64,000 nt of DNA from Candidatus Daviesbacteria bacterium (GCA_028687915.1 JAQTZF010000001.1:290634-354633), one strand, 5' to 3'. Positions 1 through 51,642 are shown, counted from the first letter of the stretch. The notes: generated from the sequence alone by a model not told the origin. Translations and numbers: made by a program.

Positions 1-2
1 AA

Positions 3-137
3 GATAAAAATTTTCCTATATTACAAATTAATGAACTTGGACATTATGTTAAGAATTATACTTTCCCTTCAGGGATAGAAATTGAACTAGATGCTGAAAA
101 TAAAACTATTATTGCTTTAGAAGATTGCGTTTCCTAA
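3..137 (+). CDS. C-terminal end of an upstream hypothetical protein (partial, runs off the window start)
   Basis: Open frame 3 from the window edge to TAA at about 135-137 (…IIALEDCVS*). Confidence 0.3.
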   Translation, partial: DKNFPILQINELGHYVKNYTFPSGIEIELDAENKTIIALEDCVS

Positions 138-988
138 GTGTACTTTTTGAAGAGTTCGGATAGATTTCTTTGGGCAGATTGTTCCACCAATGGCTTATCT
201 TTTATTTGTGGAATTTCTGATTCATAAGAAGGCTTCTTTTCTTCATATAGAATACCTAATGCTATTTGTTTTGGACCCCATTCCATGGATTTCTTAAGTG
301 CTTCTACTTTATTAGTTACATCATAACTTTCATCAAGTTTATAAGTATTTTCCTGGAAAAATGGATGAGTATACTCCTTATTAAAAGTGACACATGGTTG
401 CAAAATATCAATTAAAGCAAAGCCATCATGATCGTTTGCTTTAATCATTAATTCTGTTAATCCTGGAATATCACCAGCATATCCCCGGGCAACAAAGGTA
501 GCTCCTGAGGCAATAGCTAAAGTAAGAGGGGAGATAGGATAATCTGGATTACCATCTGGAGTAGATTTTGTTTTAAAGCCATGAGGAGAAGTTGGTGAAG
601 TTTGTCCAACTGTTAAGCCATAAATTGCATTGTCATGTAAGATAACAGTTATATTATGATTTCTTCTGCAGCTATGTACAAAATGATTGCCTCCTTCTGC
701 TAGGGAATCTCCGTCACCAGTAAAGACAAAAACATTTAAACGATTATTGGCCCCTTTAATTCCTGTGGCAACTGGTAAGGCGCGTCCATGTAATCCTTCA
801 ACAGAAGTAATTTTGGTGAAATTAATGATATGACCATGACAACCAATCCCAGCCACCATTGCTGTGTTAGTATTATCCCAGCCTTGTTTAACACAAGCAC
901 TTTTAAAAGCCCCCCAGATTGCAAAATCCCCACAACCAGGACACCAGTTTGGAGAGCAAGGTGTTACTAAATCTTCAGGTTTTGTCAT
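134..988 (-). CDS. 2-oxoacid:ferredoxin oxidoreductase, beta (TPP-binding) subunit
   Basis: 284 aa. Has the CPGCGDF motif and a TPP-binding GDG…N fold typical of KorB/PorB-type beta subunits. Translationally coupled to the alpha subunit upstream. Confidence 0.8.
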   Translation of the reverse strand: MTKPEDLVTPCSPNWCPGCGDFAIWGAFKSACVKQGWDNTNTAMVAGIGCHGHIINFTKITSVEGLHGRALPVATGIKGANNRLNVFVFTGDGDSLAEGGNHFVHSCRRNHNITVILHDNAIYGLTVGQTSPTSPHGFKTKSTPDGNPDYPISPLTLAIASGATFVARGYAGDIPGLTELMIKANDHDGFALIDILQPCVTFNKEYTHPFFQENTYKLDESYDVTNKVEALKKSMEWGPKQIALGILYEEKKPSYESEIPQIKDKPLVEQSAQRNLSELFKKYT

Positions 989-2709
989 ATTTTTAATAAA
1001 CTGTTTATTTTTTCTATTATCTCTTCAGGATAAATAGGACGTCCACTGTATTTTAATAGTTTATTAGTAATTAAAATACCTGTTTTTTCTCTAATAAGTT
1101 CAGCTAATTGTCCGGTAAAATTACATTCAATATCAAGTATGTTTTTGGCTGTATCTAAAACCTCTTTAACATCTGGTGGAAAAGGACTCATATGAGTAAT
1201 ATGCAAATAATTCACATTATCAAAATCTTTAATTGCCTGTAAAATAGCTCCTTTGTTTGATCCCCAGGAAACTATTGTTAAATCTGCATCATTTGCACCA
1301 AATAATTGTTGTTTCGGTAATTCTTTTACTAAAACATCCATTTTGCTCATTCGTTTTTCCATAGAAGCTTCACGAACTTCAATGCTTTCACTTGAGTAAC
1401 CAAAAGTATCATGTTCATCAGAATTACCTATAAAGAAATTTCCAACTCCAGGAATAGATCTTAGTGAGACACCATCAGGAGAAGGAGCAAATCTTTGATA
1501 GTTTGGAATTAGGTCTGTTGAAAACTTTCCTCTATCAATAGAGTTATCAGAGGGAGGGACTGGGATACTTTGATCACCCTCACAAATATTTTTATCTACT
1601 AATAATATTACAGGAGATTGATATTTATCTGCTAAATCAAAACATTGTTTAGTTAGATCATAACTTTCCTGTGCATCTCCTGCTGCAAGTACTATTCTTG
1701 GGAAATCACCCTGGTGAGCATGAAGTACTAAATGTAGGTCTCCTTGGTCGCTCCAGGTGGGTACACCTGTTGCAGGTCCTGGTCGCATTCCTTCAACAAT
1801 TACCAGAGGAGTTTCAATATTGGCAGCTAACCCATATCCTTCAGACATTAAACAAAAACCACCGCCAGATGTGGCGACCATTGATCTACATCCGGCAAAA
1901 GATGCTCCTATTGCCATATTAATAGCAGCAATTTCATCTTCTGGTTGTTTGTAAATGAAATTATACTTTTCTTGATTTTCTGCTAAGACTGTTAAAATAT
2001 TAGAAGTAGGGGTCATAGGATAAATAGCAGCATATTGTAAACCTGAGGCAATAGAACTTAAGGCGATTGCTTCATTTCCATTAACAATCATCTTTGTTTC
2101 AATATCTGATAATGGTTTTAAAGATTCTTTAATTTTATCCTGAAAGTTGCTGTGGACATAATCATAAGAGACCTTGGCAACTTTTTGATTTAAAGCAATC
2201 ATTTCTGCACCAGCATTGGCATAATCCTGACTAATTAAATCATTTAAAATTTGTAAATCACCACTGTGTAAGGCAACTGTTGCTCCCATGGCTGCAGTAT
2301 TTAACATTAATTTACTGCCACCTGCTGTACTAACTAATTCCTGAAAAGGAATTGGAAGAAGGGTAATATCACTATTTATTTTTGAAGTATCAAAGTCTTC
2401 TGTGTTATCAAATAAAATACTAGAACCAGGAACTAATTCACCATGGTGTTCATCAATAGTTTCCTGATTTAGGGCAATAAGAAAGTTAGTGTATTGTTGG
2501 GGAGCAGCTACTTCTTCTTGGCTGATACAGATTTGCATGATATTGTGTCCTCCCCGAACGAGTGAAGGGTATTCGGTATAGGTATAAATATTGTAGCCTG
2601 AGCGGGTAGCAACTTTGGCCAACATCAAACCAGCGGATTTAATTCCTTGTCCTGCTTGACCACCAATTTTAAGACTGAATATTTGCATTCGAGGATTAAA
2701 ATTTACCAT
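985..2709 (-). CDS. 2-oxoacid:ferredoxin oxidoreductase, fused gamma-alpha subunit (KorA-like)
   Basis: GGQAGQGIKSAG gamma-domain motif followed by an alpha domain. The ORF track extends to 2781 but that overlaps the upstream gene. Met at 2707-2709 (MVNFNP…) is the likely start. Confidence 0.75.
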   Translation of the reverse strand: MVNFNPRMQIFSLKIGGQAGQGIKSAGLMLAKVATRSGYNIYTYTEYPSLVRGGHNIMQICISQEEVAAPQQYTNFLIALNQETIDEHHGELVPGSSILFDNTEDFDTSKINSDITLLPIPFQELVSTAGGSKLMLNTAAMGATVALHSGDLQILNDLISQDYANAGAEMIALNQKVAKVSYDYVHSNFQDKIKESLKPLSDIETKMIVNGNEAIALSSIASGLQYAAIYPMTPTSNILTVLAENQEKYNFIYKQPEDEIAAINMAIGASFAGCRSMVATSGGGFCLMSEGYGLAANIETPLVIVEGMRPGPATGVPTWSDQGDLHLVLHAHQGDFPRIVLAAGDAQESYDLTKQCFDLADKYQSPVILLVDKNICEGDQSIPVPPSDNSIDRGKFSTDLIPNYQRFAPSPDGVSLRSIPGVGNFFIGNSDEHDTFGYSSESIEVREASMEKRMSKMDVLVKELPKQQLFGANDADLTIVSWGSNKGAILQAIKDFDNVNYLHITHMSPFPPDVKEVLDTAKNILDIECNFTGQLAELIREKTGILITNKLLKYSGRPIYPEEIIEKINSLLKI

Positions 2710-2710
2710 A

Positions 2711-5587
2711 TTAAAGTTTTTCTGTATAGATGCGTTCTTTTTTGATATTGCGTGATAATAAAATTTTACTTGCTGCATCAATCATTTGTATATTCCCACA
2801 AAGATAAGCGGCACAATCACTGGCGTCTGTAATATCTTGTTCAATAAGTTGGGTAATAAAACCTGAAGGACCATGCCAGCTATTATCTGGTTTCCAGATA
2901 GCAATTTTAAATTTAAAGTTAGGATAATCTAAAGAAAGTTTTTGAAAATAATCATCCCAAAATAAATCATAAGGATAACTTAAACCAAAATATAAAGTTA
3001 TAGGTATGGTACTACCATGTTCTTTTAACGCAGAATCAATTTGATATCTGAGTGGGGCTATGCCGGATCCGGTTCCCAAAAAAAGTAAGCGTTTAGCACC
3101 ATCTTCTAAATTTAAAGTAAAATTTCCAAAAGGTCCTAAGTATGTAATTTCTTCACCTACTTTAATTTTTTCAAAGTACTGTGAACCTAATCCTCTGGGT
3201 TTAATATCAATTAGTAAATTAAATCTGTTTGGTTTTGAATGAGCCACTATGGAATATGCATTTATTTTTGTTGGGGTAACTTTAACACTAATATATTGAC
3301 CTGGTATAAAAGTTAATGGTTTTGCCGTTTCAAATTCTAATGAATGGTATGTACTGGCTAATATATCATGACTAATAACTTTAGCTGTTTGAAATTGTAT
3401 TCCAATAGCTGGTTTGGTGATTGCTGCTATCTCAGTTGCAGTTTTTGCTAAAAGTATTTTAGTATCAACTGCCCAGGCATTATCATGGGTTACTATTAAA
3501 GGATTAATTTCTACATCAGAAATATCTGGAATAACTTCTACTAATTTACAAAGACGGACGATAATTTCATATAATTTATTTAAGTCATAAGCTGTGTCTC
3601 CTCTATAGCCATTTAAAATCTTAGAAATTTTTGATCCTTCAACTAATGTTTTGGCTTTGTTGATATCTATTGGAAGCAAGCACAGATTACGGTCGGCGAT
3701 TAATTCTGCAAAAGTTCCTCCAGAACCAAATAGTAAGATTGGGCCAAAAACAGAATCATATTTAATACCAATAATTACTTCAACTCCTTTATCAATTTGC
3801 TTTTGAATTTGAATTTGAGTTTGTTTTTGAATATTTGCCTCAAGCTTTAATATACTTTGATTTATGATTTCCCAGTTTTTTTGTAGTTCTTCCTTGTTAT
3901 TTATATTGGTAACAACACCTCCAACATCTTTTTTGTGCAATAGTTGAGGTGAGGAAACCTTTAGCACAACAGGCCAACCTGATTGGTTGGCAAAATTTTC
4001 TGCTTCTTCAACTGTTCCTACAATTTGAGAAGGTGGAGTAGGGATGCCCATTAAAGAGGAAACTTGGTTTGCTTCTTCTGCATCTAAAGCTGGTAGATTT
4101 TTGGAAAGTGCTTTATCAATAATTTCTTGAATAGAAGTTATGTTTTTAGTGATATCAAAATTTGGTTTTACAATTGTGGTTTCTTGCTCCATTTGCCATT
4201 TTTTAAATTTCCACATAGTACTAATAGCATTAATTGCTCTTTCAGGAAAAAGAAAGGAGGGGATTTTATAATCATTTAGTTTTTTAAGCCCAATCGCAAT
4301 CATGTCCCCTCCAATAAATGAGGCAAAAATTGGTTTTTGGTATTTTTTGGACATATGACGCATTATTTCTGCTGTTTCTACAACTTCTGTCATTATCTGA
4401 GGGGTAAGAATAACTAATACACAATCAACATTGCTGCATTGTAATACTGCGTCTAAAGCAGACTGAAATCTTTCTGCTAATGCGTCTCCTAAAACATCAA
4501 CTGGATTGTGAATATTGGCGGATTTAGGCAAGCTTTGTGCTAATAGATTTTTTGTTTGCTCATCAAATTGTGCTAATTCTAAACCAGCTCCAATTACAGC
4601 ATCTGTAGATAGTACTCCTGGTCCCCCAGCATTGGAAACAATGGCAATTTTTGGTCCCATTGGTAAATTTTCCCATGAAAATGCACGAGATAAATCAAAA
4701 AAGTCTTCTAAAGTATTAGCACGAATTATATGTGATTCTTTTAAGACTTCTTCTAAAACATTATCAGCTCCAGCAATGGCTCCAGTGTGGGAGTGCATGG
4801 CAGAGGCAGCTGCTTCAGATTTACCTGGTTTTAAAATAAAGATGGGGTCTTTTTTGGATATTTGTTTGGTTATTTCTAAAAATTTAGGACCATCTGTAAT
4901 TGATTCTAAATACATACCAATAGGACGGGATTTTGATAAGCCTTCAATTCTTTGTAATTGATCTGTTTCCAGACTACTTTGAAAGTATTCTAGGATATCA
5001 TTTTCGTTAATATCTGCTTTATTGCCCAAAGTAATAAAATCACTAAAACCAAGTCCTGCTGTTTTTGACCAGTCAAAAAGAGATGAGGCAATGGCTCCTG
5101 ATTGTGAAATAAACCTGGCATTTCCTACAATATCAACCATTTCACCAAAGGTAGCATTAATTGGACATAAATTATTCACAAATCCTAAACAATTTGGCCC
5201 CAATATATTAATGCCAAATTTTTTGGCAGTTTCACATAGATCATTTTCTAACTTTACTCCATCAGGGCCAGCTTCCTTAAACCCAGCTGCGATTGTTAAG
5301 ACATTTTTTATTCCTTTTTCTCCAATTTGATTTAAAACCTCCAGATTTTTAGATGCTGGAATAGCAATAATTGCTAAATCTGGAATTTCTGGTAAATCGG
5401 AAACACTTTTATAACATTTAAGTCCTTGTACTATTTCTGAACCTGGATTAATTGGGTAAATTTGTCCACTAAATTTAGAATTAATAATATTTTTCAAGAT
5501 TATTGAACCTACTTTATTTGGGGTATCTGAGGCACCAACTATAGCTACAGATTTAGGATTAAAAAGGGCAGATAAATTTCTGGGCAT
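2711..5587 (-). CDS. ADP-forming acetyl-CoA synthetase (fused CoA-binding alpha plus ATP-grasp beta) with a C-terminal FAD/NAD(P)-binding ferredoxin-NADP-reductase-like domain
   Basis: 958 aa. N-terminal CoA-binding motif (KSVAIVGASDTPNKVGS), ligase-CoA and ATP-grasp regions, then about 250 C-terminal residues carrying FNR-family motifs (RxYS-like AYSIVAHS, GTGSGIAP). Confidence 0.7.
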   Translation of the reverse strand: MPRNLSALFNPKSVAIVGASDTPNKVGSIILKNIINSKFSGQIYPINPGSEIVQGLKCYKSVSDLPEIPDLAIIAIPASKNLEVLNQIGEKGIKNVLTIAAGFKEAGPDGVKLENDLCETAKKFGINILGPNCLGFVNNLCPINATFGEMVDIVGNARFISQSGAIASSLFDWSKTAGLGFSDFITLGNKADINENDILEYFQSSLETDQLQRIEGLSKSRPIGMYLESITDGPKFLEITKQISKKDPIFILKPGKSEAAASAMHSHTGAIAGADNVLEEVLKESHIIRANTLEDFFDLSRAFSWENLPMGPKIAIVSNAGGPGVLSTDAVIGAGLELAQFDEQTKNLLAQSLPKSANIHNPVDVLGDALAERFQSALDAVLQCSNVDCVLVILTPQIMTEVVETAEIMRHMSKKYQKPIFASFIGGDMIAIGLKKLNDYKIPSFLFPERAINAISTMWKFKKWQMEQETTIVKPNFDITKNITSIQEIIDKALSKNLPALDAEEANQVSSLMGIPTPPSQIVGTVEEAENFANQSGWPVVLKVSSPQLLHKKDVGGVVTNINNKEELQKNWEIINQSILKLEANIQKQTQIQIQKQIDKGVEVIIGIKYDSVFGPILLFGSGGTFAELIADRNLCLLPIDINKAKTLVEGSKISKILNGYRGDTAYDLNKLYEIIVRLCKLVEVIPDISDVEINPLIVTHDNAWAVDTKILLAKTATEIAAITKPAIGIQFQTAKVISHDILASTYHSLEFETAKPLTFIPGQYISVKVTPTKINAYSIVAHSKPNRFNLLIDIKPRGLGSQYFEKIKVGEEITYLGPFGNFTLNLEDGAKRLLFLGTGSGIAPLRYQIDSALKEHGSTIPITLYFGLSYPYDLFWDDYFQKLSLDYPNFKFKIAIWKPDNSWHGPSGFITQLIEQDITDASDCAAYLCGNIQMIDAASKILLSRNIKKERIYTEKL

Positions 5588-5702
5588 AAAGTTAGTTTAG
5601 TTGATTTATAAGCCTATTATCAAGCATGTACAAAGAATTTGTGTTTTAATATTAGTAGGTCGCCTTCGTTATAACTCCGGCAGACCAAAGGAGGTGATAT
5701 TA

Positions 5703-5969
5703 ATGAAATTAGATCAAGTTAAAACAGCTTTATCCGTTGGGATATTTACGGCAGTAGCGCATATTGGTTGGTCCTTTTTAGTTTGGATGCAATTAGCTCA
5801 GTCACTTATGGATAAGATTTATGAATTACATTTCTTAAATAACCCATTTAATGTTTTAAGCTTTGATATAACTACAGCTGCAACACTTGCAGCAGTAACA
5901 TTTGTTATTGGAGGTGTTTTGGGTTGGTTTTTTGCAATTATTTGGAACCAACTAGTAGGTAAAAAATAA
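5703..5969 (+). CDS. small membrane protein, unknown function
   Basis: RBS AAGGAGGTG 6 nt upstream of ATG at 5703. Two predicted TM helices. The track ORF starts earlier, at 5601. Confidence 0.45.
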   Translation: MKLDQVKTALSVGIFTAVAHIGWSFLVWMQLAQSLMDKIYELHFLNNPFNVLSFDITTAATLAAVTFVIGGVLGWFFAIIWNQLVGKK

Positions 5970-6051: not shown

Positions 6052-6123
6052 CGGGGTGTAGTTCATCGGCAGAACGCTGGGCTGGGGGTCCAGATGCAGC
6101 AGGTTCAATTCCTGTCACCCCGA
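6052..6123 (+). tRNA. tRNA-Pro (anticodon GGG)
   Basis: Hand-folded cloverleaf. The 7-bp acceptor stem CGGGGTG/CACCCCG is perfect. U8 and A9 are present. D stem is GTTC/GAAC. Anticodon stem is CTGGG/TCCAG with loop CTGGGGG (anticodon GGG, G37). T stem is GCAGG/CCTGT with a TTCAATT loop. CCA is not encoded. Confidence 0.7.
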
Positions 6124-7472: not shown

Positions 7473-8540
7473 ATGTCAGATAACGGGGAAGCAAAAAAAT
7501 CAGCTATTTTAACTGCAATGGCTCAAATCCAAAAGGCTTATGGAAGTGGTTCTATTATGAGGCTTGGTGAAAGAGCTGAAAAAATGACTACAGAAGTTAT
7601 TTCAACTGGCTCTATTGCTTTGGATTTAGCTCTTGGAATTGGTGGTCTGCCAAAAGGCAGAATTATAGAAATATATGGTCCAGAAGCTTCCGGAAAAACT
7701 ACTGTTTGTTTGCATGTTATTGCAGAAGCACAGAAAAAAGGTGGCACAGCTGCTTTCATTGATGCAGAACATGCACTTGATCCTCAAAGAGCTCAAAGAT
7801 TAGGTGTAAATTTAGATGATTTATTAATCTCTCAACCAGATACTGGTGAACAAGCTTTAGAAATAGCTGAAACCCTGATTAGATCCGGTGGAATTGATGT
7901 GCTTGTTATTGATTCTGTTGCAGCTTTGGTACCAAAAGCAGAAATAGAAGGTGAAATGGGAGATTCAGTTATGGGTATGCAGGCCAGATTAATGTCACAG
8001 GCTCTTCGTAAGTTAACAGGGGCAATATCTAACACCAATACCATCTGTATTTTTACTAACCAACTAAGACAAAAAATTGGTGTAATGTTTGGTAATCCTG
8101 AAACAACAACAGGCGGTTTGGCTTTAAAGTTCTATGCTTCTGTAAGGCTTGATATCAGAAAAATAGAAAATATTAAACAAGGCGATTTGGTAGTTGGATC
8201 TCGTCACCGGGTTAAAGTTGTAAAAAATAAAATGGCTCCCCCATTCCGCATTGCTGAATTTGATATGGACCAAAATGGTGTTTCACACGAAGGAGAATTG
8301 CTGGATGTAGGAGTAGAGTTAGGAATCTTAACTAAATCAGGATCTTTTATTAAATGGGCTGATGTAATGTTGGGACAAGGCAGACAGGCAGCCATTACAA
8401 CTTTGAAAGAAGATAAAAAGATGTCAGAAAAGTTGGATAAAGATATTAGAGAGGCCTGGTTAAAACAATCTTCTGGTAAAGAGCTAGTAGTAGGAAAAGA
8501 AGAATCTGAAGATGGTGCTGAAATTCCAGCAGCAGTTTAG
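7473..8540 (+). CDS. recA: recombinase RecA
   Basis: 355 aa with unmistakable RecA sequence (Walker [10 protein letters not shown], the L1/L2 loops, [14 protein letters not shown]). Confidence 0.95.
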
Positions 8541-9101: not shown

Positions 9102-9770
9102 TTGATTTGCATGTTAACCATCACCTCTGTTGAACCTCAGAAAAAAAATCTCAAACGTTTTAATATTTTTTTGGATGGGAAATTTGCCTTTGGAGCAGAT
9201 GAAGATTTAATTGTTGATTATAGATTAGTGGTAGGAAAAATAATTCAAACAGAAGATTTAGAAAAATTATTATTTGAAGCAGAGGTGGGAAAATTAATGG
9301 AGAAAATGTATAACTGGTTTTGTTTTAGACAACATTCTGAAAAAGAAACAAGGGATTATTTAAAAAACCTTTCATTTAAGAGAAAACTAAAAGATTTGGA
9401 TGAAATTTCTGAGATGGTTACTTCCCTTTTAGTAGAAAGATTAAAGAAAAAAGGACTAATTAATGATTTGGAATTTGCCAAAGCCTGGGTAGATGCAAGA
9501 AGAAGAAGTAAGCAAAAAGGAATAAATGCAATAAAATCAGAACTTTATCAAAAAGGAATAGATAAGGAAATTATTGAAGAAGTTATTGTTCAAGCTTCTG
9601 AGGGTGACGAAGAAAATTTAGCAAAAATTGCTTTAGAGAAAAAGATAAATTCATGGAAGAATTTAGACGAAAAGAAAAGAAAGCAGAAAGCTTTTGAGTA
9701 TCTAATGAGAAAAGGATTTACCTATGATATTTCTAAAGAGGTAATTGAAAAATTGCTGAAAATGAGTTAA
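9102..9770 (+). CDS. recX: RecA regulator RecX (putative)
   Basis: Lies immediately downstream of recA. About 220 aa with repeated helical RecX-like segments and a basic C-terminal region (ARRRSKQKGINAIKSELYQKGI). Confidence 0.55.
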   Translation: MICMLTITSVEPQKKNLKRFNIFLDGKFAFGADEDLIVDYRLVVGKIIQTEDLEKLLFEAEVGKLMEKMYNWFCFRQHSEKETRDYLKNLSFKRKLKDLDEISEMVTSLLVERLKKKGLINDLEFAKAWVDARRRSKQKGINAIKSELYQKGIDKEIIEEVIVQASEGDEENLAKIALEKKINSWKNLDEKKRKQKAFEYLMRKGFTYDISKEVIEKLLKMS

Positions 9771-9907
9771 TATTACCTATAGTTTGTAAGAAACTTTAAA
9801 GCTTAAGGATAGATTGATGAAACAAATCAAACTACTAATTCTTAAATAACCATTTTGGTCTCCCCTATTTTTAGGGCAAGCTTTATTTCTCTTACATTTA
9901 TAAATAT

Positions 9908-11239
9908 ATGCAAAAAACATTTGGACAAACAAATAGCCCTCAAGATGATGGCTCTAATAGAGATTTAAATAAATTTGAAACAGAGCTCGCAAAACGCGAA
10001 GGTATTTTAGAAGAGCGGGAGCGGGTATTAGCAGAAAAGCTAAAAACTGTTGATGAAAAACTAGAAACTTTAGAAAAAACACGCAAAGACCTAATTTCAA
10101 AAATTGAAAAATCTTCCGGCATGTCAGAAAGTGAAGCTCAAAAAGTTTTACTGGAAAATGTTGAAAAAGATTTGGCTTCAGAAATCTCTAAAAAAGTTAA
10201 AGAAGCTGAAGAAGAAATTAAACTTCAAGCTGATGAAAAATCAAAAGAAATATTAGCAGAAGCAATGCTTTCCGGAGCAACAAATTATGTTTCAGAATTT
10301 ACAACTTCACAAGTAAATTTACCTGATGATGAGATGAAGGGAAGGATTATTGGAAAAGAAGGAAGAAATGTTCGAACTTTTGAGCAAGTAACCGGAGTTG
10401 ATGTAATAATGGATGATACTCCTGGAATGTTAATTGTTTCTTCGTTTGACCCTGTTAGACGTGAGATTGCCAAGGTCTCTTTGGAAAGACTGATTAAGGA
10501 TGGAAGGATTCAACCACAAAGAATTGAAGAAATCGTTGCAGAAACTAAAGCAGATATTGAAAAATTAATGTTTCAGGCTGGAGAACAATTAGCTCATGAA
10601 GTTGGTGTTTATAATTTACCAAGAGAACTTGTGGAATATTTAGGTAGGTTTAAATACAGATATTCTTATGGACAAAATATGTTACAACACACCCTGGAAG
10701 AAACCAGAATAGGTATTGCTTTAGCTAAAGAATTGGGAGCAAATGCAAATGTAGTTAGACTAGGATGTTTGCTTCATGATATCGGAAAAGTTGTATCTGA
10801 AGATGAAGGTACTCATGTAGAAAAAGGTGTACAGCTTGCTAAAAAGTTTGGTATGGCACCTGAAGTTGTAGCTTGTATCGCCCAACATCATGAAGACGAG
10901 CCTTTTTCATCCACAGAATCAATTGTTTGTTATATTGCTGATGCTATCTCTGGTGCCAGACCAGGAGCAAGGCGTGAAGACGTAGAAGGTTATATAAATC
11001 GAATTTCAGATATAGAAAAGATAGCTATGTCTTATGAAGGTGTAGAAAAAGCTTTTGCTGTATCTGCAGGTCGTGAGGTTAGAATAATTGTTTATCCAGA
11101 AAAGATTTCTGATGAGACCTTGCCAAAATTAACTCATGATATTGCAACACAAATTGCTAAAGAGGTTATGGTGCCTGGGCAGGTAAAGGTTACTGCAATT
11201 AGAGAAGTTAGAGCTGTTGATTATTCTATTTCTTCTTAA
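9908..11239 (+). CDS. rny: ribonuclease Y (KH plus HD domain endoribonuclease)
   Basis: Coiled-coil N-terminus, KH motif (IIGKEGRNVRTFEQVTGVDV) and HD motif (LLHDIGK). Confidence 0.85.
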   Translation: MQKTFGQTNSPQDDGSNRDLNKFETELAKREGILEERERVLAEKLKTVDEKLETLEKTRKDLISKIEKSSGMSESEAQKVLLENVEKDLASEISKKVKEAEEEIKLQADEKSKEILAEAMLSGATNYVSEFTTSQVNLPDDEMKGRIIGKEGRNVRTFEQVTGVDVIMDDTPGMLIVSSFDPVRREIAKVSLERLIKDGRIQPQRIEEIVAETKADIEKLMFQAGEQLAHEVGVYNLPRELVEYLGRFKYRYSYGQNMLQHTLEETRIGIALAKELGANANVVRLGCLLHDIGKVVSEDEGTHVEKGVQLAKKFGMAPEVVACIAQHHEDEPFSSTESIVCYIADAISGARPGARREDVEGYINRISDIEKIAMSYEGVEKAFAVSAGREVRIIVYPEKISDETLPKLTHDIATQIAKEVMVPGQVKVTAIREVRAVDYSISS

Positions 11240-12611
11240 AAATAAGCAAAGTTTTTATTCTTTCAAGTTGCCAAGTTGGAGATTGTTCTAAGTTCATAAT
11301 TCTTTCCTGTAACTCCTCATTTTCTAGGGGGTAACTTGTAAGGGAGGTATCAATTACTATATAGTTTGCGTCTATTACTTCTGGGTACATATAAATATAC
11401 CGTCTGTTGCTTAGATGAGGAACAATCGATGAGCCTGCTGATACTATAGCGTTTGGAGGAATTGTATCCAGAGACTTATTGAGATAATCATAGCTTTTTA
11501 TATTAGCAAAGTCACTTTGAAAAACTGACCAAATTATGTTTCGAGGATTTAATCCTCCAAATAAAAGTGATACTAAGAGTAGAATAATTATTGGCTTGTG
11601 AGGAATTTTAAAATTAGTAAGTGCAAAAGCTGCGCTAATTACTAAAAATGGCAGTAAGTTTGCATTATGATGAAAATCCATAGTCCACATTTGGGAGTAA
11701 CTTGATGAGAATCTTAAAAATAAATATGGGAATACACCTAACCAAAAAAGAGGGGACAATAAAGGAAGCAGGGCAAAGGGCAAATTTAAATTAATAAAGG
11801 TGGCTATCTTCACAGGAGCATTAAAAATTTGATCTATAAATATAAAAGGTCTAGTAAATAATAAAATTAATAACGTCATAGGATCATTGAGCGGTAAAAC
11901 AGATGATGAAAGATAGGTATCTGCGCCTCCTGGCCATAGTAATGCCATTAATCTAAACTTAATAAGGTAAAAGCTTATTGCAGCAAAGGTAAGAGTTTGA
12001 AGACCTAATTTCTTTTGGTCTTTTATTAGTTGATACAGACCTAATCCAGCAATAAAAAGAGGTAGATCCTCTTTAAATAATAAGCTAAAAATAAGGGTTA
12101 ACCAATATAACTTCCACTTTTTGAAATACCAAAAATATAATATCAGAGAGAGGGGTAAAACAGAGATTGTTGCTAAATGAAAATCAAAATTTATAGCAGC
12201 TGTAATTCCTTTTGAAGTTATATAACTGAGGATTAAAAGAAAACTAAGTAAGATATTCTTAGTTTTATCAAGGCAAATTAAATATAAAGGTATTGCGCTC
12301 AGGCTTACAAAAATAGCCTGAGTTATAAGTAAGGTTTCAGGTACAGGAAAGAGTTTTACTAAGGGTGAAAGGATGATAAGTACAGGACCAAAGTGATCAG
12401 CTAATAAAACCATATGCTTTAGGGAGCTATAAAGAGAGAGGTCTTGACTGTAGAGATATATCATCTGGGAATAAATACCAAGATCAAAAGCATTTGTATT
12501 AAAGGTTAGGTGATGATATAGGGAGATAAGCGAGAAAATTAAAGCAAAACATATAAAGACTAAGATGGGAATAAGGTAAGTATTTTGGGTTAGTTTTTTG
12601 TAAAAAGTCAT
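11226..12611 (-). CDS. integral membrane protein, DUF2079-like (possible GT-C type glycosyltransferase)
   Basis: 461 aa with more than 10 predicted TM helices and the N-terminal motif NAFDLGIYSQ typical of DUF2079. Confidence 0.5.
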   Translation of the reverse strand: MTFYKKLTQNTYLIPILVFICFALIFSLISLYHHLTFNTNAFDLGIYSQMIYLYSQDLSLYSSLKHMVLLADHFGPVLIILSPLVKLFPVPETLLITQAIFVSLSAIPLYLICLDKTKNILLSFLLILSYITSKGITAAINFDFHLATISVLPLSLILYFWYFKKWKLYWLTLIFSLLFKEDLPLFIAGLGLYQLIKDQKKLGLQTLTFAAISFYLIKFRLMALLWPGGADTYLSSSVLPLNDPMTLLILLFTRPFIFIDQIFNAPVKIATFINLNLPFALLPLLSPLFWLGVFPYLFLRFSSSYSQMWTMDFHHNANLLPFLVISAAFALTNFKIPHKPIIILLLVSLLFGGLNPRNIIWSVFQSDFANIKSYDYLNKSLDTIPPNAIVSAGSSIVPHLSNRRYIYMYPEVIDANYIVIDTSLTSYPLENEELQERIMNLEQSPTWQLERIKTLLIFKKK

Positions 12612-25592: not shown

Positions 25593-28500
25593 TTATTTGA
25601 AAAGTCCTAGCGGATCATTTCCTTTTGTTGCCCCGCCTCCTGTCGGGAACATTTGCCCCATTGTTGGTTTAGCGGAAGGCGCTGGTGCGCTGCCTCCCAT
25701 CAAACCCAGTGGGTCATTCGCTCTCGGTGCGCTTCCGCCAGGTTTTAACACAGGATTTTTAGTGCCTGCTGGCGCACTGAGTTTGAGTAATCGCTGCATG
25801 TCGCTCGCGTCGAACATCACACTCTTTTGAAAGCTCACCGCTTCTTTTGGATCGTCGGCGAACAGGAGAGGAGTTATCTGCGGGACAATGAGTTTGGCTT
25901 TGTTATTCCAGTCGGTTGCGATCTTTTGGGCTTGCGGTAAATTGCCTGCAGTCAGTGCTTTTTGCACCTGGATTCTGGCGGTGTTGTATCCGACAGTGGT
26001 ATCGTCCAGGAGTTGCCAGGCTGCATTCTCTTTTGCTCCTCCCTGGGTTCTGACGAATCTCTGCAGCGACGCACCAACTAGATCGCTCGGATTGAAGACA
26101 TACTTGCTGCTTGAACCGAATAACCCAGTGGCGATGTGGGCGATTCTCATCGGACTCCATCCGACGGCTCGTCCCAGCATTACTGCCAGAGGTTCTGTCT
26201 TCTCGTTATATTGCTCGGTAGGTGCGACCTTCTCCAATTTTCTCGGAATGATCGGGAATCCTGTAAATAGATTCAAGTTTGTGACTTCTTCGACCAGGGT
26301 TTTCAATGCTGGCGGTAGCGCTCCTCCCAGGAAAGCACTGCCTGATAATTCGCCGTCTCTACTGAAAGGAACTGGTGAGAGTTGGCTTGTCCATTCGACT
26401 GCCAATTTCAGCAGGTTGGCTGGCTCTTGCTTCCTCACATACTCAAAGGCGTATTCGAGCGGATTGTAGAAAATAGCACCCATGTCTCCTTTGGGAATCT
26501 GCAGCACTTTCGGCACTGTTTTGCCTTCCTTGTCTTTTTCAGAGCCTAAAATGATAATGAAATACTGATCCTTTGCCCACTGCGGGATGTCGTCCCAGAG
26601 GTCTTCGTGATTCATGATGTTATAGAAATAGGTGGCGACACCTGGCATGACAATGAGCGCCATTGCTTTGAGTGCCGACTTGAGCGGGTTTTCTTTGAAA
26701 GCATCTTTGACTCTGAGGAGTCCTTGCCAGCGGGCATTCACGAAAGGAATCCACTGGTTGATGATCCTCATCTCTTTGCCTGCTTTTGCAAAATCGACTG
26801 TGGCATTTCGGGCTTCGAAAGCTGCCTCGGTTGTCGTCACTCCTGGCTTGGCAATACCTTTTTTGTAGATGCCCAGTCTCGGCGCGAGTTCTACCGCTTC
26901 AGAGAAGTTGCTAATAAGCTGGAAGGGATTGATGATCGCCTTTGTTTTCGTCCACCAGGATGGCGTGAACAATTCTTTTGAAACAACTGACAGCTGCTTC
27001 GCGTTGCCGATATAACCGCCGTATCCTCCCTGGTTTTTCAAGAAATCATCATAGGCTTTCGACTCCCATTTGAATGCTCCCTTGAAGCCATCCATGAGTC
27101 CTGAGAGCCAGTTGACTGGACTGAAGCCCCACTTCGTCACTATCGATGCGGTCTGGAAGTCGCGGATCGCGTTGGTCAGGGTAAAAGGAATATAGAAGGT
27201 GGTCACACCCGCCTTGAATGCTCTGGTTGATGCCATTGCCAGTTTGCCCATGACGCCTGCCTCAGCTGGACTGAGTGCGTGCATCGCTTCGGACAGCTCT
27301 TTTGGCACAGCCCAGCGCGTCACCTTGCCGTTTATGAAGGCACTGATGGTGTCCCAGTCCTTCGGCGCTTTGGCGTCTTTGTAGAGATATTTTATAAATT
27401 CTTTTGCTTCGGGATGACTCTTTCTCAGATCGATCAATTTCCTGGCGACTTCGTTTCTCTTGGTCAGGTTGATTGCTTTGCTGAGGTTGTCGACGATTGA
27501 TTCAAAAGGATCGCGAATCTGTTTTTCCGTTCCTTTTAATCCCTGAATGACACCCTGTTTGCTGACAGAGAATGTCTCGCTGCCTGCCTGCATCTGGTCT
27601 GCTTGTTTAGCATCAGGTAGGTAGTCGAGGACATGGAATGGCATCCAGCTCTTATTTTTCTCGACAACGGCATTGAATGCCTTTTTGCTGATCAGTCCTG
27701 TGTCTCTCATCGGTTCGAGGATGTTTCGGATCGACCAATTCTGGATCGCTTGCCCTGCCTGTTCGAACTGCTTATAAACTTTCTCGCCGACTTTTTCTTT
27801 CAATTCAGTGAGAGCTTTTTCTCCTGTTTCTTTGGTCACACCTGCTGGGTTGTCGAAGCCTCTGTCGGCTCTTTCGATGGCACGCTGCGCCAGGACATAG
27901 CGGGTGAAGTCTGGTCGGAATTTTCTCACTGGTGAGACGATCTTTTGCAGATCACGGAAAGCGACCTCAATCGTTCCGAATCTGCCCGCGTAGAGTCGCG
28001 CTGCAATATAAGGACTGGAATCAATATCGATGGGGAGTCCCTGCAGTTTGCTGACTGTTTCCTCGAATTGCTTCATAGGAGCATAGCGGTCAGTGAAGTT
28101 TCTGCTAAACCAGGGCTTGACCCCTTTGAGCCAGTCTGCCACTGATGCAGCTTTTCCGAGTTTGCCGACCATTTTATCGATCTGCTCCAGGGCGCTACCT
28201 TCTGGCGGTGGAGGAGCTTGAGTGATCGGTTCTTCTTTTGGTGGTCGTGGTGCGCTTCCTTTCGGAGGAGTCGCCATTTCGTCAGCCCGCATCTTTTTGG
28301 GTGCTTTGACTTTGCCCTGCATTCTCTCCTGGAATTTCTTCAGGTAGGCTTCTTTGTCTTTCATGATTTCGCCAACACTGGGGACACGCTCGGCATCCAG
28401 GAGTTCTTTTTCTTCTGGTCGATATTTAAGTCTGATTTCTTCTGCCTTCGCTGCTTTTTGCTCCTGGGCAGTGAATTGCTGCGCGATCTGATCATCGATC

Positions 28501-30764
28501 TTTTTAATGGCTCGGACGATTTTGTCATCGCCAGGGTTGGAATAGCGCAGTTTTTCGAGAGCATCTTTTTTCAGCTGCAGCTGTTTAACCTGCGGGCTTA
28601 CCTCGCCAGGTTGTTTCTCTACTTTTGGAGGGGTGACCTTTGTCTCAGGAACTGGCGCAGGTGCTGGTTTGGGTTCGGGCGCTTTCACTTCCGCTGGTTT
28701 GACCCAGGGCTTTGTGAATCTGTCGCCGTTTTTCGTCCACCATTTTGCTGCTTCCGTTTCAGGAATTACTTTTTTGTCAAAATAAACTGCTTGAGGTTCG
28801 ATATTGCCAGTCTGAGTGTTCTTGCCCATGAGGTAGGAGACACCAGCTGTCTTGCCTTTTTGTCGGAATATAGAGCCTTTATCAAAAAGACCCGCGTCTT
28901 TGACCGCCACCTTACCGACTTTATCAGTGGAATCGGCATCGAATTGAAAACCCTCAGTCGGTTTTGCGGGAGCTGGGGCAGTGGCTGCCTTGATAGTCGA
29001 CATCACTTTTTTATACCCCTCAATATCGTAGCTTTTGCCCTTAAACATGGCATAAATATCTTTGTATTGATCGTTAGTTATTTTCTGCCCCTGGAATTTT
29101 TTGGCTTCTTCCATGAGATTGAGTTTGCTGTTGACGCCGTTTTTGAGATTATCGATCACCCAGTTGACCACCCCTTTGTTGACAGTCATGTCTCTGGCAT
29201 ATTTATTCGTCTGACCATACTGATTGCGCAGGGTATTCCAGAGAGCTTTGCCATCCTTCCAGGTGGGATTTGTGATCGCGACTTCTTCCGCGATTGCAGG
29301 CGTTTGCTCGGTTGCAGCTGGCGTCTCTTTCAGAGTTGCCGATGGCGCTGCTTCGGGAGTTTTGACTGCTTCAGCGATTGCCATTTCAGGCGTTCCTTTT
29401 GATGGCGTCACCTTGATGTTTTGTTCTTTTGCCAGGGTTATGAGATCGGAGTTTGAAAGTTTGTTTGCTGGTAGTCCGAATTTTGTTTTGACTTCTTCGC
29501 CACCCAGACCCTTGATAACCTCAGCTCGTTGCTCATCGGTGAGTGTGGATCGCACTGAGAGTCCTGCTGGCATGTTTCTGATGGTGCTTACCACTAAGGC
29601 TCGTTTGTCGGGGACATTCACCCACAGCTCGCGGAATAAATCCTCGAACTCCTGGCGGAATGTCTTGCCAGTGTAGCCTGTTGGATTCTGGATTTTCGTC
29701 AAGAACTCATAGGCGCGGTTGGCTGTATTCCATGCCTGATTGAACTGACCCATCTCTTGCGGTGTTTGCATCGACTGAGCTGGGAATTGTTTTGTGATGT
29801 CGACGACCTTTTGTTTCCAGGCAGTTTTGATCTGATCCGCGCTGGCTTTCTCGTTGACTCCGAGATAATCGAATGCCTGTTTTTTAGTGATGCTCAGCTG
29901 CTCGGATGCAGCTTTCTCCATGTTCTTTTCGAGTTGCGCTGCCTGTGATGGGAATGCTTTTGCCAGGGCGTAGTTGGTAGAGTGGAGTGCAATCACTGCT
30001 GCCGTATTTTTCAATGCGTCTTCAGGACTGTCTCCCTTAATAAGTGAGGTGACATAAGCTGCAGGAGCGATGATTCCAGTCGACTTGAAATAACTGGGTT
30101 TCATACCTGCAATAGAAAATGCCCCTCCCAGAGCAAAGTCAGCTCCAAAGTCTTTGGCACGCTGCGAAGCGTCCTTGTAGAACTCTGATTTTTGAACCTG
30201 ACCTAGACCTGCGAAGGTTAAACCATTCGTCAGAAGTGAGTAAGTTTTGGGTGCAATACGAGCGAATCTAGCGACAGCAGGAATCCCTCTGGCTGCGCCT
30301 TGAATCAGCTCTCCGCCCACTAGAAAAGTTGCGACAGTGCCGAGAATGTTAAATTCGACATCGGTCATTTTGGCTGCCATTGCTGCAGTGTCGTCGGCAT
30401 ATTTAATCTCTGGATTCCACCAGCCGAAAGTGAATGCTTTGGCAAGTCCTGTGCCTGCCCCTCCGAGTGCGCCGACTGTGGCGCTGGGGAGTCGTTCCCA
30501 GAACCCTGACTCTCTTGCGCCGATCCCGAATGTTTGTGCTGCCGTCTCGACCCAGAGATTCTCGTAAGGTTTATAGCTTCCGCCTTTGTCTCCAGGGATC
30601 GCGTATTCTGATTGTTTGGTGAGTTCGGCTATCGGTTTGAAAAGATCAGTGGCTTTTGTGCTGACTGGCTTGAAGAAATCGCCCAGTGTTTTTCCCACAG
30701 AAGACACTCCCTTCTCGATAGGGCTTAATATGTTTGTTTTCAGTGTGTCTAAAAAGTTTGGCAT
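25593..30764 (-). CDS. giant virion protein (1723 aa); candidate internal/ejection or tape-measure-like protein
   Basis: Uninterrupted 5.2-kb ORF. Gly-zipper-like hydrophobic segments at the N-terminus and middle, a Pro/Ala-rich linker (KPAEVKAPEPKPAPAPVPE) and a Gly-rich C-terminus. Position is between the tail-fibre genes and the lysis cassette. Confidence 0.6.
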   Translation of the reverse strand: MPNFLDTLKTNILSPIEKGVSSVGKTLGDFFKPVSTKATDLFKPIAELTKQSEYAIPGDKGGSYKPYENLWVETAAQTFGIGARESGFWERLPSATVGALGGAGTGLAKAFTFGWWNPEIKYADDTAAMAAKMTDVEFNILGTVATFLVGGELIQGAARGIPAVARFARIAPKTYSLLTNGLTFAGLGQVQKSEFYKDASQRAKDFGADFALGGAFSIAGMKPSYFKSTGIIAPAAYVTSLIKGDSPEDALKNTAAVIALHSTNYALAKAFPSQAAQLEKNMEKAASEQLSITKKQAFDYLGVNEKASADQIKTAWKQKVVDITKQFPAQSMQTPQEMGQFNQAWNTANRAYEFLTKIQNPTGYTGKTFRQEFEDLFRELWVNVPDKRALVVSTIRNMPAGLSVRSTLTDEQRAEVIKGLGGEEVKTKFGLPANKLSNSDLITLAKEQNIKVTPSKGTPEMAIAEAVKTPEAAPSATLKETPAATEQTPAIAEEVAITNPTWKDGKALWNTLRNQYGQTNKYARDMTVNKGVVNWVIDNLKNGVNSKLNLMEEAKKFQGQKITNDQYKDIYAMFKGKSYDIEGYKKVMSTIKAATAPAPAKPTEGFQFDADSTDKVGKVAVKDAGLFDKGSIFRQKGKTAGVSYLMGKNTQTGNIEPQAVYFDKKVIPETEAAKWWTKNGDRFTKPWVKPAEVKAPEPKPAPAPVPETKVTPPKVEKQPGEVSPQVKQLQLKKDALEKLRYSNPGDDKIVRAIKKIDDQIAQQFTAQEQKAAKAEEIRLKYRPEEKELLDAERVPSVGEIMKDKEAYLKKFQERMQGKVKAPKKMRADEMATPPKGSAPRPPKEEPITQAPPPPEGSALEQIDKMVGKLGKAASVADWLKGVKPWFSRNFTDRYAPMKQFEETVSKLQGLPIDIDSSPYIAARLYAGRFGTIEVAFRDLQKIVSPVRKFRPDFTRYVLAQRAIERADRGFDNPAGVTKETGEKALTELKEKVGEKVYKQFEQAGQAIQNWSIRNILEPMRDTGLISKKAFNAVVEKNKSWMPFHVLDYLPDAKQADQMQAGSETFSVSKQGVIQGLKGTEKQIRDPFESIVDNLSKAINLTKRNEVARKLIDLRKSHPEAKEFIKYLYKDAKAPKDWDTISAFINGKVTRWAVPKELSEAMHALSPAEAGVMGKLAMASTRAFKAGVTTFYIPFTLTNAIRDFQTASIVTKWGFSPVNWLSGLMDGFKGAFKWESKAYDDFLKNQGGYGGYIGNAKQLSVVSKELFTPSWWTKTKAIINPFQLISNFSEAVELAPRLGIYKKGIAKPGVTTTEAAFEARNATVDFAKAGKEMRIINQWIPFVNARWQGLLRVKDAFKENPLKSALKAMALIVMPGVATYFYNIMNHEDLWDDIPQWAKDQYFIIILGSEKDKEGKTVPKVLQIPKGDMGAIFYNPLEYAFEYVRKQEPANLLKLAVEWTSQLSPVPFSRDGELSGSAFLGGALPPALKTLVEEVTNLNLFTGFPIIPRKLEKVAPTEQYNEKTEPLAVMLGRAVGWSPMRIAHIATGLFGSSSKYVFNPSDLVGASLQRFVRTQGGAKENAAWQLLDDTTVGYNTARIQVQKALTAGNLPQAQKIATDWNNKAKLIVPQITPLLFADDPKEAVSFQKSVMFDASDMQRLLKLSAPAGTKNPVLKPGGSAPRANDPLGLMGGSAPAPSAKPTMGQMFPTGGGATKGNDPLGLFK

Positions 30765-51420: not shown

Positions 51421-51642
51421 CTATATTTCAATACCTGTCGGCTTCGGCGTATCTCCCGCGCTTCCACCATCCTCTGGATCGATGCGTTTCTGCTCGATCA
51501 TCTCTTTGCGGAAGGGTTTGCCGTCGCTGATAAAGATAACGACTCTACCGAATTTCACTCGGCGAATGTCTTCAAGGATAGCCAGCTCTGCTTTGGTTAC
51601 CTTGACCTCTTTGACTGGTATGAATTTATTTGTTTGGCTCAT
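51421..51642 (-). CDS. hypothetical small protein (YezD/DUF2292-like?)
   Basis: 73 aa. Overlaps the terminase stop. Confidence 0.35.
   Translation of the reverse strand: MSQTNKFIPVKEVKVTKAELAILEDIRRVKFGRVVIFISDGKPFRKEMIEQKRIDPEDGGSAGDTPKPTGIEI

Follow-up and report, generated by a model that had tools for sequence, protein, structure and literature searches.

An ADP-forming acyl-CoA synthetase fused to a ferredoxin-NADP+ reductase-fold module in 2-oxoacid:ferredoxin oxidoreductase operons of Patescibacteria

The Sulfolobus-type two-subunit 2-oxoacid:ferredoxin oxidoreductase (OFOR) has a single near-surface [4Fe-4S] cluster with a CXGC motif, a pocket for an external ferredoxin, and no internal ferredoxin domain, and in Sulfolobus tokodaii this cluster (-545 mV) reduces the [3Fe-4S] cluster of a ferredoxin (-280 mV), which is recycled by a ferredoxin:NADP+ oxidoreductase (PMC5020499). 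The pyruvate:NADP+ oxidoreductase (PNO) of Euglena, Cryptosporidium, and anaerobic ciliates couples a pyruvate:ferredoxin oxidoreductase (PFO)-type enzyme to an NADP-reducing flavoprotein of the ferredoxin-NADP+ reductase (FNR) fold and yields NAD(P)H (PMC6993867). Here, we describe a 958-amino acid (aa) protein encoded in a stretch of 64,000 nucleotides (nt) from Candidatus Daviesbacteria (GCA_028687915.1, JAQTZF010000001.1:290634-354633; the whole stretch analyzed is referred to below as the window), in which an ADP-forming acyl-CoA synthetase (ACD) is joined to a C-terminal FNR-fold module and whose gene lies in one operon with those for a two-subunit OFOR. Bacteria of the Candidate Phyla Radiation (CPR) have very small genomes and no respiratory chain, and, to our knowledge, metabolic reconstructions of them usually leave open both how ferredoxin is recycled after pyruvate oxidation and where NAD(P)H comes from.

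Like the S. tokodaii chain, the system considered here has a two-subunit OFOR without a ferredoxin domain, a soluble ferredoxin with a three-Cys motif, and a dedicated NAD(P)-linked reductase; it differs in that the reductase has a plant/BenC-type FNR fold and is fused to an ACD, and in that the genes form one operon. The Sulfolobus reductase is a separate, thioredoxin-reductase-like protein of a different fold, and its ferredoxin partner is a dicluster (7Fe) protein that also contains zinc. PNO shares with it the coupling of a PFO-type enzyme to an FNR-fold flavoprotein, but the PNO reductase (FMN plus FAD/NADP, of the P450-reductase type) is fused to the PFO itself, whereas here there is no FMN domain, the fusion is to the next enzyme of the pathway, and a separate ferredoxin is probably needed. 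ACD, two-subunit OFOR, single-cluster ferredoxin, and the FNR fold are all known, as is the logic of the Sulfolobus chain and of PNO, and the finding offers no new principle. What is different is the ACD as fusion partner, a minimal BenC/Fre-like module that has neither an FMN nor a [2Fe-2S] relay, and a four-gene cassette (ACD-FNR, OFOR alpha, OFOR beta, and ferredoxin); targeted searches of the open-access literature yielded no description of an ACD-FNR fusion or of a CPR ferredoxin:NAD(P) system. The published description of the complete WWE3 genome lists an ACD, PFOR alpha and beta, and "a ferredoxin oxidoreductase-like protein" but makes no mention of the fusion (PMC3812714).

The fused protein and its operon

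The fusion gene (2711..5587, minus strand) is a single uninterrupted open reading frame (ORF) of 958 codons, with an ATG start, no internal stops, and a TAA stop codon at 2713-2711. An identical NCBI protein (P0001) from a Candidatus Daviesbacteria metagenome-assembled genome (MAG), where it is encoded on a 1.1-Mb contig, is labeled "acetate--CoA ligase family protein." The stop codon is followed by 1 base and then by the ATG (2709-2707) of the OFOR alpha gene (985..2709, minus strand), which codes for a 574-aa subunit of the fused gamma-alpha type and overlaps by 4 nt the gene for OFOR beta (134..988, minus strand), a 284-aa subunit with predicted thiamine pyrophosphate and single [4Fe-4S] sites. 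OFOR alpha matches Pfam POR and POR_N and NCBIfam TIGR03710 (OAFO_sf; 595 bits against a cut-off of 483), and OFOR beta matches TPP_enzyme_C, PFO_beta_C, and TIGR02177 (313 bits against a cut-off of 262), with a CPGC motif of the CXGC cluster type at residues 16-19. These are the only OFOR domains found with Pfam and NCBIfam, ferredoxin domain V being absent, and the pair is a two-subunit 2-oxoacid:ferredoxin oxidoreductase of the Sulfolobus type, a family with domains III-I-II in alpha and domain VI in beta (PMC5020499). An earlier reading of this DNA (referred to here as the original prediction) had proposed a single ACD and FNR-like fusion in a tight operon with OFOR alpha and beta, and this architecture is borne out: CoA-binding, CoA-ligase, ATP-grasp, FAD_binding_6, and NAD_binding_1 domains are all matched, every Pfam match to the protein exceeds its curated cut-off, and the two motif strings that it quoted, AYSIVAHS and GTGSGIAP, lie at residues 777-784 and 838-845.

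The ACD half (residues 1-715; 3443..5587, minus strand), delimited with Pfam, phmmer, and Foldseek, contains CoA_binding_2 (12-138), Succ_CoA_lig (155-303), Ligase_CoA_2 (315-448), and ATP-grasp_5 (493-712; E = 1.5e-61), which together provide the five subdomains of the ACD superfamily, namely CoA-binding (1 and 2), ATP-grasp (3 and 4), and CoA-ligase (5). It matches Nitrosopumilus Nmar_0206 (PDB 8wzu) at 2e-131 with phmmer, and the alignment places H267 opposite H256 and H551 opposite H535, the two phosphohistidines in the mechanism of the Nitrosopumilus ADP-forming synthetase (PMC11494057). His267 (codon 4787-4789, minus strand) lies in the SHTGA phosphohistidine loop, and His551 (codon 3935-3937, minus strand) lies in the LLHKKDVGG segment of the ATP-grasp region; each is invariant across 22 family members. 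The modeled ACD body superposes on 8wzu with target-normalized template modeling (TM) scores of 0.89-0.90 in Foldseek, which also matches 4xym. The half thus resembles characterized ACDs (Candidatus Korarchaeum ACD1, 4xym, and Nmar_0206, 8wzu) in its five subdomains, its fused alpha-beta order, and its retention of both His residues, and the protein differs from them in the added C-terminal 226-residue flavoprotein module on a flexible linker. A C-terminal add-on to a body of this NDP-forming acyl-CoA synthetase kind is also present in PatZ/Pat (Foldseek E = 1e-54 between the ACD body and Escherichia coli PatZ, over 877 aligned columns, with TM-scores of 0.62-0.67), but the PatZ add-on is a GNAT acetyltransferase, whereas here it is a redox module and both ACD catalytic His residues are retained. 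Compared with the NCBIfam equivalogs for acetate-, 3-hydroxypropionate-, and 4-hydroxybutyrate-CoA ligases, the ACD half stays below every cut-off: TIGR02717 scores 492.3 bits against 567, NF045494 scores 448 against 1200, and the top match, NF045493 (4-hydroxybutyrate-CoA ligase), scores 536 against 1300. The equivalog cut-off for acetate--CoA ligase (ADP-forming), EC 6.2.1.13, is therefore among those not reached in NCBIfam.

The C-terminal module (residues 733-958, 226 residues; 2714..3391, minus strand), delimited with Pfam, NCBIfam, PDB, and Foldseek, has the fold of the FNR superfamily, with a beta-barrel FAD domain (FAD_binding_6, 736-823; E = 6.4e-10, 39.7 bits against a cut-off of 21.1) and a Rossmann-like NAD(P) domain (NAD_binding_1, 836-940; E = 4.2e-15). 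Its PDB sequence matches are led by the NqrF FAD domain (1.7e-24), MmoC (9e-23), and BenC (2e-21), whereas plant FNRs reach just 1e-5 to 1e-7. NCBIfam gives the same picture, with MmoC/BenC/AntC reductases at 1e-34 to 1e-27 and plant-type FNR at 3e-8, and the PetH-type FNR profile NF045929 scores 32.9 bits against a cut-off of 600. Structure prediction supports the FAD-binding fold, the module matching E. coli Fre (1qfj) with a target-normalized TM-score of 0.89 (root mean square deviation [rmsd], 2.1 Å), cytochrome b5 reductase with 0.81, and NqrF (7qty) with 0.72. The ferredoxin-NADP+ reductase motifs originally assigned to this region thus stand at the level of the superfamily and do not extend to plant-type FNR, since BenC, MmoC, NqrF, and Fre are much closer (1e-34 versus 3e-8); the module is assigned by its sequence to the BenC/MmoC/NqrF/Fre type. 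It shares with BenC, MmoC, AntC, NqrF, and Fre the FAD_binding_6 and NAD_binding_1 core, the GGxxS, GTGxxP, and CG motifs, and a C-terminal hydrophobic residue. It differs from BenC, MmoC, and NqrF in lacking their N-terminal plant-type [2Fe-2S] domain (no Fer2 domain is present, and the NCBIfam matches begin at profile positions 106-134, past the ferredoxin domain), and from the group as a whole in having KINAYS for RxYS, an insertion in GTGSG, and a C-terminal Leu instead of an aromatic residue. Fre itself is a flavin reductase, and its substrate is free flavin.

The motifs of the module are PGQY (762-765), KINAYS (774-779), GLGS (799-802), GPFG (818-821), GTGSG (838-842), YLCG (928-931), and a C-terminal ERIYTEKL, and PGQY, Y-S, GxGS, GPFG, GTGSG, YLCG, and a C-terminal ...EKF are conserved family-wide. 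Both nucleotide-binding motifs of the superfamily (GTGxxP and CG) are present. In the first, TGSG (839-842) is invariant, G838 is Ala in some members, and the GTGSG P-loop carries one inserted residue compared with the canonical motif; in the second, Y928, L929, and G931 are invariant, and C930 is the sole near-invariant Cys of the module in the family alignment. Tyr778 and Ser779 of the RxYS motif are invariant, and the Arg position is occupied by Asn776, while Lys774 precedes it by two residues on that strand. R-I-N-x-Y-S predominates among the fused members, the canonical I-R-x-Y-S occurring in a minority; because beta-strand residues two apart face the same side, the shifted basic residue may replace the Arg of RxYS. 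Where this protein ends in Leu958 (codon 2714-2716), most family members have Phe or Tyr (...EKF) and the closest relatives have Ile or Leu, and the matching NqrF residue, Phe406, is mutated to Ala in PDB entries 8ad3 and 8ad4, one of which is an NADH complex. The segment following the second strand of the nucleotide domain is LYFGLSYPYD (family consensus, GL[RST]xxx[DE]); it was considered as a guide to preference for NAD or NADP and this reading was dropped, as the motif is not decisive.

The two halves are joined by residues ~716-732 (about 17 residues; 3392..3442, minus strand), which vary in length and sequence and are gapped and unconserved in the family alignment. The AlphaFold model has a mean predicted local distance difference test (pLDDT) score of 84.9, about 88-95 in the C-terminal module; confidence drops only in the swinging loop (257-272) and over residues 717-729 of the linker, where pLDDT in AlphaFold 2 is below 50. 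The linker is accordingly predicted to be flexible, and the relative placement of the FNR and ACD parts is to be read with a predicted TM-score of 0.65 and a disordered linker in mind.

Distribution of the fusion and its linkage to ferredoxin

The best 120 homologue clusters, drawn from independent assemblies, are all 922-975 aa long with 52-84% identity, and the same seven Pfam domains are present in 118 of them, the other two lacking only a precomputed FAD_binding_6 match. At least 120 clusters therefore share the architecture, mostly with the operon too, and because independently assembled homologues agree in fused length and domains, an assembly or frameshift artifact is excluded. Such an artifact and a failure to match the FNR superfamily were the two outcomes that would have undone the original prediction; sequence and fold matches and the independent homologues speak against both. 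A scan of one genome per GTDB species, giving a lower bound on occurrence, places the fused gene, among the matches listed, in Levybacteria, Roizmanbacteria, WWE3 (including the complete genome CP006914), and unclassified Patescibacteria. The complete fused gene was examined at 20 loci (L001-L019 and L021), from Levybacteria, WWE3 including CP006914, and other Patescibacteria records, and is followed directly by OFOR alpha and beta at 17 of these; the exceptions are L009 and L021, which stop at a contig edge, and L014, which has no OFOR. L016 ends inside OFOR alpha. Among the matches listed, the ACD-FNR architecture is the usual form within Microgenomates and WWE3, to which the four-gene cassette is confined; the earlier description of it as not a standard ACD architecture holds against characterized ACDs and fails within these two groups. 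Occurrence beyond Patescibacteria was considered and rejected: GTDB records that contain the fused gene or close relatives of it and are titled "Gammaproteobacteria," "Pseudomonadales," "Saccharibacteria," or "Methanoperedens" probably carry unreliable MAG labels, and the oddly titled records (L002, L004, L006, L008, L014-L016, and L023-L025) are suggested to be Patescibacteria by their GC content of 34-41% and their 50-57% identity to the Daviesbacteria protein.

Queried on its own against 1.84 billion representative proteins, the module retrieves a handful of fused representatives together with numerous stand-alone proteins (227-250 aa; 30-45% identity). Four stand-alone relatives were looked up (38-40% identity), and three of them (P0132, P0134, and P0137) have a gene for an 82-94-aa Fer4_13/Fer4_15 ferredoxin immediately downstream, whereas at the fourth (P0130) no ferredoxin gene follows. 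These ferredoxins have three Cys in a CIGAASC...CP arrangement, a [3Fe-4S]-type pattern. The same ferredoxin family is encoded downstream of OFOR beta, on the operon strand, at 19 FNR-containing loci, and directly after the ACD-FNR gene at L014, where OFOR is absent, so that it is the last gene of the operon at 20 FNR-containing loci. It has no matches at about 29 ACD loci without the module; six of these loci are operons of ACD with OFOR alpha/beta, and Magasanikbacteria account for four of the six. Conversely, a separate FNR gene (232-249 aa) lies directly upstream of OFOR alpha/beta at L022 and L024, which have no adjacent ACD, and at L026 a stand-alone FNR gene is upstream of OFOR alpha/beta with an unfused ACD 1.7 kb away. 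Because FNR-OFOR operons without ACD and ACD-OFOR operons without FNR both exist, the evolutionary partner of the module is ferredoxin/OFOR, and because the module tracks these and not ACD, its fusion to ACD represents a union of operon neighbors that took place in particular lineages. A neighbor-joining tree of modules has the ferredoxin-linked stand-alone forms basal and the OFOR-linked stand-alone forms among the fused ones; since the tree has no support values, the order from pair to operon to fusion is suggestive only. The stand-alone FNR at L026, from a Patescibacteria single-cell genome, has a different redox neighborhood, being separated from the unfused ACD by genes (4261-5955) for an NDH-2-like pyridine-nucleotide-disulfide oxidoreductase (407 aa) and a flavodoxin (158 aa).

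In the window itself, Cys-motif scans, tblastn, and a hidden Markov model built from three of the ferredoxins find no ferredoxin. A candidate position right past OFOR beta was rejected, as window positions 1-140 (minus strand) have no ferredoxin start in any of the three frames; we read this segment as probably the last part of a convergent gene, its 3' end. A longer contig that encodes the same protein (L063) codes for an 84-aa three-Cys Fer4_13/Fer4_15 ferredoxin at 7869-8123 (plus strand of that contig), ~1.8 kb beyond window position 1 and 1.9 kb past OFOR beta on the strand of the operon, with two convergent peptidase genes (S66 and M10) inserted between OFOR beta and the ferredoxin. The original prediction had the module re-oxidize ferredoxin reduced by OFOR; the ferredoxin genes in related operons and beside stand-alone relatives lend this genomic support, and the ferredoxin component itself had been missed.

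Other redox genes are found near the ferredoxin. Between OFOR beta and the ferredoxin, on the opposite strand, L007 (9554-10261, minus strand), L011 (9509-10180, minus strand), and L022 (9330-10034, minus strand) code for a second, divergent FNR-like protein of 223-235 aa, and L002 (9522-10079, minus strand) and L006 (9570-10151, minus strand) code for a nitroreductase-family protein. At L063, a two-subunit [NiFe] hydrogenase (large subunit, 433 aa; small subunit, 161 aa) is encoded at 9753-12135, 4-6 kb past OFOR beta, accompanied by a HycI-like protease and HypC, and because no beta/gamma diaphorase subunits are adjacent, it may be an alternative outlet for the same ferredoxin.

Proposed function and its alternatives

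We propose, with moderate confidence, that the bifunctional fusion protein handles both products of the OFOR encoded downstream of it, giving ATP and NAD(P)H. The OFOR, with one [4Fe-4S] cluster and no built-in ferredoxin domain, would convert pyruvate or another 2-oxoacid to acyl-CoA and CO2, and its electrons would reduce the small soluble [3Fe-4S]-type ferredoxin. The ACD half would convert acyl-CoA, ADP, and Pi to free acid, CoA, and ATP by way of the two conserved phosphohistidines, and the linker-tethered module would pass electrons from ferredoxin through a bound flavin, presumably FAD, to NAD(P)+; the acyl group is plausibly acetyl, in which case the net reaction would be pyruvate + ADP + Pi + NAD(P)+ -> acetate + CO2 + ATP + NAD(P)H. 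The transfer from pyruvate to NAD(P)H is exergonic overall by general thermodynamics, and because each turnover yields one acyl-CoA and one electron pair, a 1:1 fusion would be stoichiometrically sensible; the covalent link may secure fixed 1:1 expression and proximity. By analogy, this would be the chain of S. tokodaii with a single protein taking both OFOR products, and we regard it as the most economical reading. Transfer from ferredoxin to NAD(P)+ does not by itself balance redox, so the redox-balancing unit envisaged in the original prediction would require a further electron sink.

Several observations weigh against this proposal. For every family member the mechanism rests on sequence and model, and the ferredoxin:NAD(P)+ oxidoreductase activity is predicted solely from the genomic association with Fer4_13/Fer4_15 ferredoxins. 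One related locus (L001) has no ferredoxin within 3 kb, and in the Daviesbacteria genome itself the ferredoxin gene is not contiguous with the operon. The canonical flavin-binding Arg is shifted or replaced, so that tight FAD binding is assumed; the module is Fre-sized and superposes best on Fre; and the scores of the ACD fall below the equivalog cut-offs, which leaves its acetyl-CoA specificity tentative. Finally, [3Fe-4S] ferredoxin potentials are often above that of NAD(P)H, which would favor electron flow in the opposite direction. Were the electrons to run that way, the module would be an NAD(P)H:ferredoxin reductase charging the small ferredoxin, and the operon would be assimilatory and not fermentative, supplying other ferredoxin-dependent enzymes or reductive carboxylation by OFOR, with the ACD activating acetate. 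ACD and OFOR reactions are reversible in principle, the closest characterized relatives of the module (BenC, MmoC, NqrF, and P450 reductases) all run from NAD(P)H to an acceptor, and three-Cys Fer4_13/15 ferredoxins are typical partners in such chains. The potential needed for pyruvate synthesis, however, is about -500 mV. A [3Fe-4S] ferredoxin near -280 mV, the Sulfolobus value (PMC5020499), would be unable to drive it, and fermentation, with the ACD reaction yielding the ATP, is what published analyses of such genomes infer (PMC3812714), so we consider this reverse flow distinctly unlikely.

The ferredoxin could also be dispensable. The module might dock on OFOR beta and draw electrons directly from the surface-exposed [4Fe-4S] cluster, forming a pyruvate:NAD(P)+ oxidoreductase complex like the Euglena and Cryptosporidium PNO, with an ACD added. 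The module gene is always immediately upstream of OFOR alpha, stand-alone FNR-OFOR operons exist, the pocket at the cluster is open in two-subunit OFORs (PMC5020499), and PNO provides the precedent of a PFO joined to an NADP-reducing flavoprotein (PMC6993867). Such docking is nonetheless very unlikely in our view, since it leaves unexplained both the strict co-occurrence with a ferredoxin gene and the FNR-ferredoxin pairs that have no OFOR nearby (L056, L058, L062, and L014), and the one-electron relay provided by the FMN domain of PNO is absent here. Alternatively, the module could be a Fre-like NAD(P)H:flavin reductase or general reductase (acting in oxygen or quinone detoxification or in iron reduction), functionally uncoupled from the ACD and joined to it as a neutral by-product of stop-codon loss between neighbors in a compact genome. 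The Fre superposition (target-normalized TM-score of 0.89, rmsd of 2.1), the JGI label "NAD(P)H-flavin reductase" on one stand-alone relative, the nitroreductase and other reductase genes near the ferredoxin at some loci, and the interspersion of fused and unfused forms in the rough tree would all suit an uncoupled reductase. Its sequence, however, is nearer to FAD-holding BenC/MmoC than to Fre (118 versus 77 bits in NCBIfam), the fusion persists in two or more lineages of Patescibacteria and in at least 120 clusters (52-84% identity), and the ferredoxin linkage points to a protein as redox partner; we give this explanation just as little credence as direct docking on the OFOR.

If the fusion protein does take both OFOR products, with ferredoxin as the intermediate carrier, the conserved cassette of ACD-FNR, OFOR alpha, OFOR beta, and ferredoxin offers a specific hypothesis, accessible to cloning, of how CPR bacteria recycle ferredoxin and obtain NAD(P)H. 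It would be a second, independent case, after the eukaryotic PNO, of ferredoxin-type pyruvate oxidation hard-wired to pyridine-nucleotide reduction, and the annotation of hundreds of proteins named merely "acetate--CoA ligase family protein" would be corrected. The fusion protein, OFOR alpha/beta, and ferredoxin might furthermore assemble into one particle that channels both acyl-CoA and electrons, an extension that is speculative and rather doubtful. If true, such a particle would run "pyruvate to acetate + ATP + NAD(P)H" as a self-contained machine and would be the first substrate-level-phosphorylation enzyme covalently joined to an electron-transfer module, and it would answer how minimal, respiration-less bacteria shed OFOR electrons and gain NAD(P)H.

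Other features of the window

A weak sigma-70-like hexamer pair (5594..5623, minus strand; 9 of 12 consensus matches in a consensus scan) lies just upstream of the start codon of the fusion gene and is a possible promoter for the operon, proposed on position only, as the region has 28 sigma-70-like sites against 26.1 expected from shuffles. Because promoter and terminator consensus matches in the region show no excess over the shuffled expectation, no regulatory claim is made. The sole Rfam match in the 64-kb window is a tRNA gene (6052-6123, plus strand), ~460 nt upstream of the operon on the opposite strand.

Farther away, window positions ~24000-60000 resemble a phage or prophage, which probably accounts for the label "Host" that the original prediction gave to the fusion gene. 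The products encoded in this region include a protein of 1723 aa carrying an LPD38 "large polyvalent protein" domain, one of 862 aa that terminates in an Amidase_2 domain, and a GpA-type terminase large subunit; examples of its ORFs are those at 25593-30764, 35662-38250, and 51626-53185, all on the minus strand.

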